In this document: one piece after another, positions 54,001 through 57,000 of the stretch
Numbering within the stretch: position 1 is the first letter of the stretch
Layout of the letters: each line of letters opens with the position of its first letter
DNA from: Nostoc sp. DedSLP01
GTDB lineage: Bacteria; Cyanobacteriota; Cyanobacteriia; Cyanobacteriales; Nostocaceae
DNA length: 64,000 nucleotides
Reading direction: 5' to 3'
Assembly: GCA_034530875.2 (NCBI GenBank)
Contig: JAVRCJ020000032.1
Span: 20,778-84,777 of the forward strand
Program-made: the position numbers

Positions 54001-57000
54001 CAAGCGATCGAGCAGGTGCAAAAAGATAACTACTCAAAAGCTGAAAAATGGCTCAATAGAGTCAAGGAATCACCCAATGAGCGATCGGCAATTGAACAAG
54101 GACAACCCGTGACTGTCTAAACTTCTGAAGCTGCTCAACCTAAAAAGCCAAGCCAAAACTCGTTTATCTAGAGAATCTCCCGAATTCAATTCGAGAGATT
54201 CTCAATTACGAATTAGTTATCTTGTTTTAGCCATCAATAATTAATTCGTGGTGCATCTTTATCTGATATAGCAATCCTAAATGAATTGCAAAATTACTCA
54301 TGTAAAGGGAACAGAGAACAGGAAAGAAGAACGTACAAATGTATTCTAGCTTTCATAAATGAAATAGGATTGCTATAGTGTTTTAGATCCGTTGTTAACA
54401 AAGTCGATCCAAGGCTAAGCCAAAGTAGTTGGACTTGATGGACATTTAAGAATTAAATTACTCAATTCTTACATCCAACACCCTATCTAATTTCTTTTCC
54501 CCTCACCTCTCCTGCTTACCATCTGTATAAATCCCGTAGATTGCCCTTTTCCCCACTTCTGCAAAAAACTTATTGCTGTACTTTGATAAGTAATAATAAT
54601 CATTGGTAATAATTATTAATAATTGTCAACAAATTTTTGCTTAAGTGTCTTAACTGTCTTAAATATCTGCTTAACTGTCTTAAATGTCTTAAATGTCTTA
54701 ACTTATTAACTTCTTAACTGTCCTTGCACACATATTTAATTACTGATATATCTTTAATTGCCAAAATAATTTCCCTAAGGGAAAACTCTATGTCTACAAA
54801 CACACTCGAAAAAGTGGATGTTGCAGTAGTACCATTCTTTGCCCGTTTCTTACAAGAGCAAGGTGTTGATGCAGCGGAGCCTACTCCTCCTTCAACACCA
54901 CCTTCTAATCCTCCTTCTAATCCTCCTTTTATTTACACTTTCAAGTTTCCTTCAGATTGGGAAGATCCAACCTCTTAGTCTTCTAGCTCTGAAAATAAAC
55001 TTAAAGCAGCTCTTAGGGAGGGCGATCGCTTTCATCTTATTCGATGCATAATATGGAGGCGATCGGTTCTTCCACAGCCGATATTTTTTGTACAAGGAGA
55101 ATGTAAAAAAGAATTTATTTGGTATTTCTTAATATCAATTTAGAAAAATTCTCTCACAAAATATTTTATGCACCTGTCTCGTGATGTTGTTCTATTAATC
55201 ACTCACAGTTCTGACTTTTTCACAATAGATAGAGTGGCAGAAGCCTTATCAAAAAAAGGGGCGCAACCATTTCGTTTAGATACCGATAGGTTTCCTCTAG
55301 AAGTGGAATTAACAGCATCTTTTGATAAGTCAAAAAGCTACCACACTATAGAATATAACAACTGCTCGATCGGTACAGAACAGGTGCAAGCTGTGTGGAT
55401 GCGCCGCATTTGGGAGCCAACACTCAGCCCAAAATTAGCTTCTAAGTTTCGAGAAGCTTGCGTTAGAGAATCAAAAGCAACTTTAGATGGTTTTTGGGAC
55501 AGCCTAAAAGAAGCTCGCTGGATAGATAATTTAGAACGGATAAATTATGCAGAAAATAAACTGCGTCAACTGCGGGTTGCCTCTGAAGTAGGTTTTGCGA
55601 TTCCCCAGACTGTTATCACCAATAAAGCTGAGTCAGCGCGAGAGTTTTTCCAGCAAGTCAAGGGAAAAATGGTGAGTAAATTACTAACTCCTCTTTCCCG
55701 CAGTATGGAATACACCTCGTTCTTTCTTTACACCAGCATTGTTAAAGAAGAAGACTTAGCAGATGCCGAATCACTACGCCACTGTCCGATGGTTTTTCAA
55801 GAACAAATCCCCAAACAGCAGGAACTACGCGTGGTGTATGTGAATGGTAATGTATTTGTGGGGGCGCTAAATGCCGATGTCTATGCAGCAGCCAAAGTTG
55901 ATTGGCGTCAACCTGGTGTTGATATTGGTGCATGGCAACACCACCAGCTTCCTAATGAAGTAGTTCGCCGTCTTCAAGCTTTTATGGGAAGATTTGGGCT
56001 GTTGTTTGGGGCTTTAGATTTCATCGTCACGCCATCAGGCGAATATGTCTTTTTAGAAATCAACCCTGTGGGAGAGTGGGGAATGCTCGAGAAGGATCTA
56101 GACTTACCGATTGCAAATGCGATCGCTGATGCCCTACTTCAAAGAAAAGATGAATGTTAATGAAGGCAGGAGGCCGTTTTTGTAACGAGGATTTATAGCC
56201 GTAGTCAGATATCTTAGGACATTTTTAAAGCTGGAATGCTAGACATAGCAATATTTTTACCTCCTACCTTGCCATAACGATGATTTTTAACACTGAGCTA
56301 CTTAATTCCTAATTATTATGACCGTATTAATAATTACCTTTAGCCAAGACAACGAAAGTATTCCTCTAGTCATCAAACAAATTGAGGCTAAAGGAGAAAA
56401 AGCATTTCGGTTTGATACAGACAGATATCCCACTGAAGTCAAGCTAGATATTTATTTTGGCGATACAGAACGGGTAATTATTACTGATGGCGAACAAAAG
56501 CTCGATTTGGGTGAGGTATCCTCTGTTTGGTATCGCCGGATGCGCTACGGGCAAAAAATCCCTGCCTCAATGGACAAGCAATACAGAGATGCGTCAGTTA
56601 ACGAATGTCGCGCCACTGTCAGAGGTGCGATCGCCAGCCTCCAAGGATTCCACTTGGATAAAATCTCTAATGTAGAGTGGGCTAATAATAAACAACTACA
56701 GCTACAAATTGCACGACAAGTCGGACTTCTAACTCCACGTAGCTTGACTTCAAACAATCCCCAAGCAGTCAAGCAGTTTTCTCAAGAGTGCCCGCAAGGG
56801 CTAGTCACCAAAATGCTTTCTTCCTTTGCGATTTACAATGAGCAGGGGCGAGAAAACGTGGTGTTTACCACTCCAGTTACAGCCGACGATTTGGAGAATA
56901 TGGAAGGGCTGCGTTTTTGTCCGATGACATTTCAAGAAAACGTACCCAAGGCGCTGGAGTTGCGGACAACTATTGTCGGACACCGCGTATTTACTGCCGC

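Follow-up and report, generated by a model that had tools for sequence, protein, structure and literature searches.

In Streptomyces, the large SARP AfsR unites a DNA-binding module, an NLR-like STAND switch and a repeat sensor within a single SARP-NOD-TPR chain and controls natural-product genes through afs boxes, i.e., two 11-bp direct repeats that overlap the -35 box and the spacer of weak promoters (PMC10936776; bioRxiv 10.64898/2026.09.02.748808). MalT of Escherichia coli is a STAND transcription activator that multimerises. It recognises several asymmetric boxes, one of which adjoins the -35 box, and combines a C-terminal LuxR-type HTH with a TPR sensor in one chain. A different type of operator is used by BldC of Streptomyces, a MerR-like wHTH protein of 68 residues devoid of an ATPase, which binds head-to-tail, directional 9-bp direct repeats of variable number with an AT-rich start and the consensus AATTXXXX(C) (PMC5859096). 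In Nostoc punctiforme, the nostopeptolide, anabaenopeptin and microviridin clusters have been found to rise together, and the first half of the respective paper names no operator common to them (PMC9324945).

Here, we analysed a stretch of 64,000 nucleotides from Nostoc sp. DedSLP01 (contig JAVRCJ020000032.1, positions 20,778 to 84,777), hereafter referred to as the window, in which a direct-repeat array precedes a microviridin operon. The following features were assigned:

54641..54722, + strand: predicted operator, a direct-repeat array with six strict TTAAnTGTC units
54724-54729, + strand: predicted -35 hexamer TTGCAC, separated from the last unit by a single C (54723)
54744-54745, + strand: extended -10 TG, predicted from the sequence
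54747-54752, + strand: predicted -10 hexamer TATATC, non-consensus, at a 17-bp spacing from the -35 box
54790..54978, + strand: microviridin precursor peptide, 62 aa (PF12559, E 2e-11)
55168..56160, + strand: ATP-grasp ligase, MdnB-like (PF21068; best PDB matches 5ig8 and 7m4s AMdnB)
56318..57295, + strand: second ATP-grasp ligase, MdnC-like (PF21068; 5ig9, which we take to be MdnC, E 4e-156)
57443..59671, + strand: LamG-patatin protein
59818..60222, + strand: hydrophobic protein, 134 aa, without a known family
60624..62645, + strand: ABC transporter of a type found in array-led clusters (PF06472, PF00005)

The strict units start at positions 54641, 54650, 54671, 54680, 54689 and 54714, corresponding to spacings of 9, 21, 9, 9 and 25 bp, and are accompanied by a variant unit, TTAAATATC, at 54659; a further two units, both degenerate, occupy 54698-54713. 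With respect to the predicted promoter, the unit nearest to it (54714-54722) has its centre around position -41. The survey's finding had placed a -10 box of the form GAT(T/A)AT behind the array; the window promoter instead reads TG-A-TATATC (54744-54752), and a generic sigma-70 scan did not pick up the array promoter of the microviridin operon. The same array-promoter layout is present in 56 of 63 loci with close microviridin orthologues, one of the 64 close matches being omitted owing to its position at a contig edge.

Short intergenic tandem repeats are familiar from the STRR heptamers of heterocystous cyanobacteria, including Nostoc and Anabaena, and 7-bp tandem repeats are likewise abundant in the window. 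However, the period of the array is 9 and not 7 bp, and the array is in addition infrequent, has a defined orientation and keeps a fixed position to a promoter. The pho box of SphR was also considered and rejected, since its period of 11 bp is incompatible with the 9-bp spacing of the array. The strand-specific orientation of the repeat would be compatible with a function as RNA, either as a leader or as a small RNA recognised by an RNA-binding protein. However, the array lies upstream of conserved promoter boxes, the array stretch folds worse than all of 200 shuffled sequences (z +2.16), and an Rfam search of the same stretch returned no match, which renders this the most improbable of the explanations considered.

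Scanning the genome for the strict motif yielded 451 copies, from which the seven arrays of 6-8 copies, two pairs and 401 single copies of the survey's finding could be reproduced, provided that the split groups at C4 (2+5) and C28 (2+3+1) are merged. The reversed pattern occurs 618 times with a largest group of two. Likewise, when no more than one mismatch was allowed, tandem pairs were found at 11 sites in the genome and at none in its reversed counterpart. Thus, the array is a real element. One of the 11 sites, C34:51910, lies inside a coding sequence and is probably due to chance. For the census we used the mismatch scan, as a first PWM scan proved too strict and missed four of the seven large arrays. 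That arrays occur at only seven places is correct for the large ones; overall, six smaller sites with the same layout have to be added:

C1:206965, C17:20312, C23:77100, C4:35497 and C11:213947(+): smaller arrays with 2-3 units and the same promoter
C36:58021-58061: degenerate array between an HTH-AAA_35 paralogue and an AAA_35-WD40 gene

The one-mismatch scan contributed C1:206965, which heads a gene with a lamin-tail domain, and C17:20312, which heads a gene with a chitin-binding domain; a profile scan contributed C23:77100, which heads a gene of the fatty-acid hydroxylase family. On C11, two arrays stand back to back, each followed by a TTG box of its own. The six biosynthetic operons, which had been described as unrelated, are so only in part: those on C11 and C13 both open with isopropylmalate-dehydrogenase-like and aconitase-like genes, and the upstream flanks of C56 and C74 are 77% identical over 152 nt. 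The C11 cluster, previously termed anabaenopeptin-type, is indeed anabaenopeptin-like, but comprises five A domains, its thioesterase resides on the third NRPS and a fourth NRPS gene is absent next to the cluster; the canonical anabaenopeptin layout has six modules.

An array scan of GTDB genomes revealed at least 118 loci. Among the 80 named matches listed, 77 are of Nostocales type, one is from Phormidium and two are non-cyanobacterial chance matches without a promoter (L072 and L085), which were left out of the counts; another locus, L126, was excluded from the offset, spacing and block-centre analyses. Some loci are present in more than one sample, so that counts from different analyses overlap. 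Among the 142 arrays with sufficient downstream sequence, 49 have the TTG of the -35 box at offset 1 from the last unit and another 31 have it at offset 10, so that 80 arrays conform to one of these two positions. An extended -10 motif is discernible in 47 non-redundant promoters, in which the -10 region was unscored, with frequencies of 0.70, 0.49 and 0.64 for T, G and A, respectively, and of 0.79 for A(-11) and 0.77 for T(-7); the first base of the -10 box is mostly not T, G occurring there at 0.38-0.51. The next ORF lies on the strand of the array at 90 of 103 loci and on the opposite strand at eight, with no ORF at the remaining five. In line with the survey's finding, these data provide good support for a shared, predicted promoter element on the sense strand.

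The number of units per array ranges from 2 to 20. They are spaced by 9 bp in 464 cases, by 12 bp in 75 and by 11 bp only once, with further spacings of 21-24, 31-33 and 42-43 bp; the arrays thus do not follow the period of the afs box (11 or 22 bp). The distal blocks start 31, 40-43, 51-52, 61-62 or 71-73 bases before the TTG, which corresponds to a period of approximately 10.1 bp (R 0.70, 33 blocks) that was equalled by none of 20,000 jittered sets. When the phasing is computed from block centres, with 10.5 bp as the period, the signal is weaker (R 0.36, p 0.014). An excess of triplet blocks was dropped as evidence, because it is built into the search pattern. Such a layout, as judged from sequence, would keep putative protein sites on the same side of the helix, ahead of a weak promoter.

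The variable copy number, the plentiful short tandem repeats of Nostoc genomes and the flanks that C56 and C74 have in common could also be accounted for if no protein were dedicated to binding the arrays and these were simple repeats made by slippage or constituted a mobile promoter cassette. We regard this as very improbable, given that the register to the TTG is fixed, that the sense orientation prevails as described above and that, among the 11 sites, a long flank is common to C56 and C74 only, the remaining similarity amounting to two short stretches of 49 and 21 nt. The first genes behind 100 arrays moreover belong to 52 families, and the presence of the array tracks one gene family, as shown below.

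Of the proteins encoded by first genes, 72 were scanned with Pfam, and the first genes were sorted into functional classes by hand. According to this sorting, approximately 40 of the 100 first genes are core biosynthetic, namely geosmin synthase (8), NRPS or adenylation/condensation proteins (23), FAAL-type proteins (3), PatA/PatG-type proteases (4) and microviridin ligases (2), and about nine more look accessory. Others encode LamG-patatin proteins (8), a small hydrophobic protein (4), TerB-like proteins, Tle1-like and LCAT lipases, RTX-repeat proteins, carotenoid oxygenases and lectins. Since 8 of the 100 loci have a homologue of the window's LamG-patatin gene directly behind the array, this gene is probably a member of the regulon; a protein similar to the hydrophobic protein of 134 aa heads four of them. 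In this genome, arrays head the NRPS loci on C11, C13, C56 and C74, and they are absent at those on C1, C3, C10, C45, C48-50, C53, C71 and C82, some of which may be continuations of other loci in this fragmented assembly. The second pair of microviridin-type ligases in this genome has no array, and the array promoter was found at none of seven loci of a second ligase class. As most NRPS/PKS loci of this genome are devoid of an array and the targets are mixed, the regulon would comprise a subset of clusters together with genes of secreted or defence type. The element is shared as had been claimed, and the proposed scope of a common regulon for specialised metabolism is, as judged from the predicted targets, at once too narrow and too broad.

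AAA_35 genes recur beside arrays, which led us to the following genes outside the window:

C4:36486-37907: HTH-AAA_35 gene, encoding protein P0001
C36:56462-57877: HTH-AAA_35 paralogue
C36:58641-62309: AAA_35-WD40 partner gene

A pair of units, C4:35497, lies between the gene for P0001 and an AAA_35 gene; in this C4 partner the WD40 part is absent. The arrangement of HTH-AAA_35 gene, array and AAA_35 gene was found again in other genera, and a tandem array is present within 6 kb of the HTH-AAA_35 gene at 50 of 80 loci. Of 60 linked arrays, 59 run on the strand opposite to this gene and 56 lie downstream of it, and the reversed pattern, used as a control, did not occur in the 985 kb around the gene loci.

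P0001 matches PF14516 (AAA_35) with E 4e-139; otherwise, Pfam reported only a weak NPHP3_N match and neither an HTH nor an OmpR-type DNA-binding or BTA domain. A PDB sequence search with P0001 retrieved no relative. In the predicted structure (pLDDT 73), a small N-terminal domain made up of helices is followed by a linker without order (91-146) and then by the AAA+/STAND body. The model matches Avs4, NRC4, Apaf-1 and CED-4 at E ~1e-6 to 1e-7, with PDB entry 8bob of the maltose system among its many STAND matches, and archaeal AAA+ ATPases and ORC rank equally high or higher. Residues 1-95 were classified as Cro/C1-type by Atlas (0.93), and the structure matches of the N-terminal domain are mostly of XRE type, albeit weak (Foldseek E >0.07, best Z 6.8). 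Three weak but agreeing tests thus suggest a Cro/XRE-like N-terminal domain; its family numbers at least 388 clusters and shows a variety of fusions. The HTH chain ends after AAA_35, and the WD40 repeats are encoded by the neighbouring gene. The Walker A motif of the HTH chain is kept (MGK[ST]S); its Walker B motif appears degenerate and reads VLVLNEVD in 11 of 25 aligned sequences, the rest of those shown having other non-DE forms. In the partner, Walker B is canonical, with FIFIDEID in 14 of 16 proteins. The WD40 regions (0.56-0.76) do not clearly exceed the ATPase (0.70-0.81) in variability and therefore show no sign of a hypervariable sensor.

The AAA_35 proteins probably correspond to the Npun2340/2341 STAND family, a name that appears in PMC8195603. 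In both cases, the proteins are STAND-like ATPases that occur in pairs in filamentous cyanobacteria and carry N-terminal and WD40 extensions. Leipe et al. 2004 are said to have found the Npun2340/2341 family to be paired and expanded in cyanobacteria. In the literature searched, we found no report on a DNA site, a regulon or a function for AAA_35 members, and open-access papers and preprints yielded no description of the repeat or of its link to a regulator. What is new here is a candidate for the protein that binds the arrays: it is probably the XRE/Cro-type HTH fused to the AAA_35 (STAND) ATPase, a putative transcription factor of the Nostocales acting on multi-site operators, whose gene usually neighbours that of an AAA_35-WD40 protein.

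This assignment draws on the joint inheritance of gene and array. Employing a close HTH match (E <1e-39) and a perfect triple array, we found both in 63 of 126 Nostoc genomes, the gene alone in four, the array alone in three and neither in 56; one of the four gene-only genomes contains merely a frame of 112 aa. In 225 genomes from other genera of the Nostocaceae, profiled with E up to 1e-28 and at least one exact tandem, the corresponding numbers are 79, 11, 12 and 123. Both E-value cut-offs were set after inspection of the data. The concordance of 202 of the 225 genomes was reached in none of 20,000 permutations within genera, and the genera g4 (11 and 5), g16 (4 and 11), g20, g21, g154 and g172 are fully concordant. 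When nine of the 11 gene-only genomes, along with the relative set of G191, were searched again with looser patterns, six of the nine were found to contain variant tandems. In contrast to the close HTH, distant paralogues are not associated with the array (p 0.54). Outside the family, a single genome, G440, contains the close HTH among 190 genomes of the order's other families, and the same genome is the only one with an array and TTG outside the Nostocaceae among 401 genomes of the phylum searched; here, both are part of one locus, approximately 5 kb apart. The genomes are kin and not independent, which the within-genus permutation and the crossed controls described below correct in part. In the genomes profiled, the arrays are thus almost always inherited together with one predicted HTH-AAA_35 family.

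Such a pattern could also arise if another protein bound the arrays and the HTH-AAA_35 pair were a member of the regulon or a co-inherited passenger, the more so as the pair often flanks the array and travels with array-led genes, as arrays without the close HTH exist in a few genomes (G046, G088 and G122 in Nostoc and 12 of the 225 others), and as profiling by array presence covers only part of the genome's genes. We consider this improbable, because the array, with the WD40 gene behind it and the 3' end of the HTH gene ahead, drives neither gene of the pair, and because the repeat variant tracks the variant of the recognition helix and not another paralogue.

The latter correlation was seen when the predicted recognition helices were compared. 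Most array-linked proteins have the helix S.KTL[SN]RL (K type); one clade has S[TS]RTLSKL instead (RK type; 19 of 20 proteins fetched from the 476-aa class), and beside it a sister repeat, TTAACTTTC, was found. Exact tandems of the latter are present in 41 of 126 Nostoc genomes, with none for the control, and 40 of the 41 carry the RK clade. The S.KTL[SN]R type is associated with TGTC (p 5e-27) and the S.RTLSK type with TTTC (counts 40, 9, 1 and 76; p 6e-23), whereas the crossed pairings are unassociated (K type with TTTC, p 0.71; RK type with TGTC, p 1.0), and a different HTH-AAA_35 of the same genome predicts neither repeat (p 0.25 and 0.85). The RK helix was read in approximately 25 of 49 genomes, the remainder being assigned by identity and length. 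This shows a paralogue-specific association of the arrays rather than one with general cluster richness. The two changed helix residues presumably lie at base-contacting positions of lambda-repressor-type helices. Orthologous microviridin promoters follow the same rule: two or more TTTC units characterise 38 of 42 loci where the genome has the RK clade, compared with 2 of 14 where it does not, and in the RK genomes they take the place of the distal block. RK-only genomes retain TGTC/TGAC units adjoining the -35 box, and therefore specificity would not be absolute. As the RK proteins form one clade, which is often on the same contig as its targets in one island, the pairing of RK and TTTC amounts to approximately one event.

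Binding, activation and sensing by the pair are what we infer from these patterns. It is highly likely that one HTH would contact one 9-bp unit, with the proteins arranged head to tail, and the distal blocks at whole helical turns would most likely reflect an oligomer that wraps the upstream DNA. XRE domains usually bind as dimers to inverted repeats and usually act as repressors, as do most members of the lambda-repressor-like family, to which the HTH of P0001 shows likeness; moreover, the array adjoins the -35 box and extends over the region of the alpha-CTD. HTH-AAA_35 could accordingly be envisaged as a filament on the array that silences the promoters until the sensor releases it. However, the units end one base before the -35 box, none being located in the spacer, the -10 box or the start region of the aligned promoters, and most -10 boxes lack the consensus first T, as expected for activator-dependent promoters, so that repression appears unlikely. 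Activation is favoured over repression, since a unit near -41 occupies the position of a class II activator, for which CAP at -41.5 is an example (PMC10936776). Given binding, the HTH-AAA_35 protein would rather likely be a class II activator of a weak sigma-70-type promoter. The WD40 partner is likely to be both the sensor and the active ATPase; that it would sense a signal, co-oligomerise with the HTH chain and in this way offer the array several HTHs, we hold to be slightly more plausible than not. The chances appear even that the output would serve defence, both chemical and surface-based, through peptides, geosmin, lectins and lipases.

In its full form, we propose only tentatively, at somewhat below an even chance, that a split, paired NLR-like receptor, consisting of an AAA_35-WD40 sensor and an XRE-AAA_35 effector, serves the Nostocales as an inducible activator on the 9-bp arrays and would switch on a defence programme (geosmin, microviridin, cyanobactin, NRPS products, lectins and lipases), whereby paralogues read different repeats through two helix residues, a simple code that assigns clusters to regulators. 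By analogy, this receptor would work like AfsR or MalT, sharing with them the STAND fold and a DNA-binding domain on the same chain, and would act on direct repeats with the 9-bp head-to-tail geometry of BldC sites. It would nevertheless fall outside each of these classes because of the 9-bp period, the XRE domain and the sensor on a second gene. In contrast to AfsR, the candidate has an XRE-like domain and its sensor is on a separate AAA_35-WD40 chain, the HTH-AAA_35 chain itself being devoid of the repeat sensor typical of AfsR and MalT; in contrast to afs boxes, the arrays contain 2-20 units of 9 bp and end just upstream of the -35 box. MalT differs in that it controls a sugar regulon and has no paired ATPase, and BldC in that the candidate combines a Cro/XRE-like domain with a STAND ATPase.

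For the control of the many biosynthetic clusters of cyanobacteria, the arrays offer a predicted operator, together with a candidate for the protein that reads it and a putative code of specificity. If true, this would be the first function for AAA_35 pairs and would mean that NLR-like control of transcription, familiar from Streptomyces and E. coli, also exists in cyanobacteria, there divided between two genes. The array would likewise provide a sequence marker for co-regulated clusters, including those for geosmin, which affects the taste and odour of drinking water.

The genes enclosed between the two members of the pair vary and encode lectins, a protein of 125 aa or PA14 proteins, and therefore fit local targets; in some loci, no gene is enclosed. 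In such a pair without an enclosed gene, the array promoter aims at the 3' end of the HTH gene, a predicted arrangement that could give rise to antisense feedback.

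At three loci from the compared genomes (L067, L099 and L038), a strong array of the TTAAnTGTC repeat is placed such that its promoter is aimed into the 3′ end of the gene for HTH-AAA_35, the candidate array-binding protein that carries an N-terminal XRE/Cro-type HTH and an AAA_35 STAND ATPase domain. Behind these three arrays we did not find a sense ORF of 100 aa, and a possible role of the promoters is antisense feedback on the HTH-AAA_35 gene.

Three genomes of genus g154 (G521, G594 and G616) each contain 79-115 exact tandem matches, which points to a far larger regulon there. 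In addition, arrays are present in G046, G088 and G122, where no close HTH-AAA_35 match was found; the arrays may have been transferred recently, or the gene may have been lost or fall in an assembly gap. Moreover, the very long arrays of L060 and L138, with 9 and 20 units, respectively, end without a promoter box; the former sits amid transposase-like ORFs.

In Nostoc sp. DedSLP01, two arrays lie back to back on contig C11:

C11:213875-213964, two arrays back to back

The plus-strand pair has a promoter of the microviridin type, and no clear gene follows it for 660 nt. As the same back-to-back layout heads microviridin genes in L362, the plus-strand pair may be a relic.

Variant units of the type TTAACTCTC adjoin HTH genes in L170 (G567), L171 (G600) and L160 (G553), and in two of these three genes the helix S is replaced by T or G. 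These units, together with the altered helix, possibly represent a third specificity class. Five further proteins of the same HTH family are encoded in Nostoc sp. DedSLP01, with no TTAAnTGTC-type array nearby:

C18:3690, HTH-family protein
C29:28339, HTH-family protein
C29:18709, HTH-family protein
C45:43115, HTH-family protein
C12:86503, HTH-family protein

The partner, a second AAA_35 protein encoded beside HTH-AAA_35, usually carries WD40 propellers. On C4 of the same genome (locus L149) it stops at 404 aa without WD40 repeats, as does the 409-aa partner in L150, and in many Nostoc loci no partner is found within 6 kb of the HTH-AAA_35 gene. The usual local target in Nostoc, located between the two ATPase genes, is a 125-aa conserved protein:

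C4:33705-34919 (L149:7706-8920), minus strand, AAA_35 partner, 404 aa
C4:35781-36158 (L149:9782-10159), conserved protein of no known family, 125 aa

In the window, the following genes precede the microviridin array:

47164-48789, minus strand, PAS histidine kinase
48779-49033, minus strand, small HTH_3 protein
49675-54120, plus strand, nitric oxide synthase (NOS), 1481 aa, with globin, oxygenase, flavodoxin and FAD/NAD reductase domains

The array (54641-54722) lies immediately 3′ of the NOS gene, from which the two overlapping minus-strand genes diverge. Furthermore, within the LamG-patatin gene, the stretch coding for the acidic linker contains a 150-bp tandem duplication (58296-58589), the copies of which are 95% identical.
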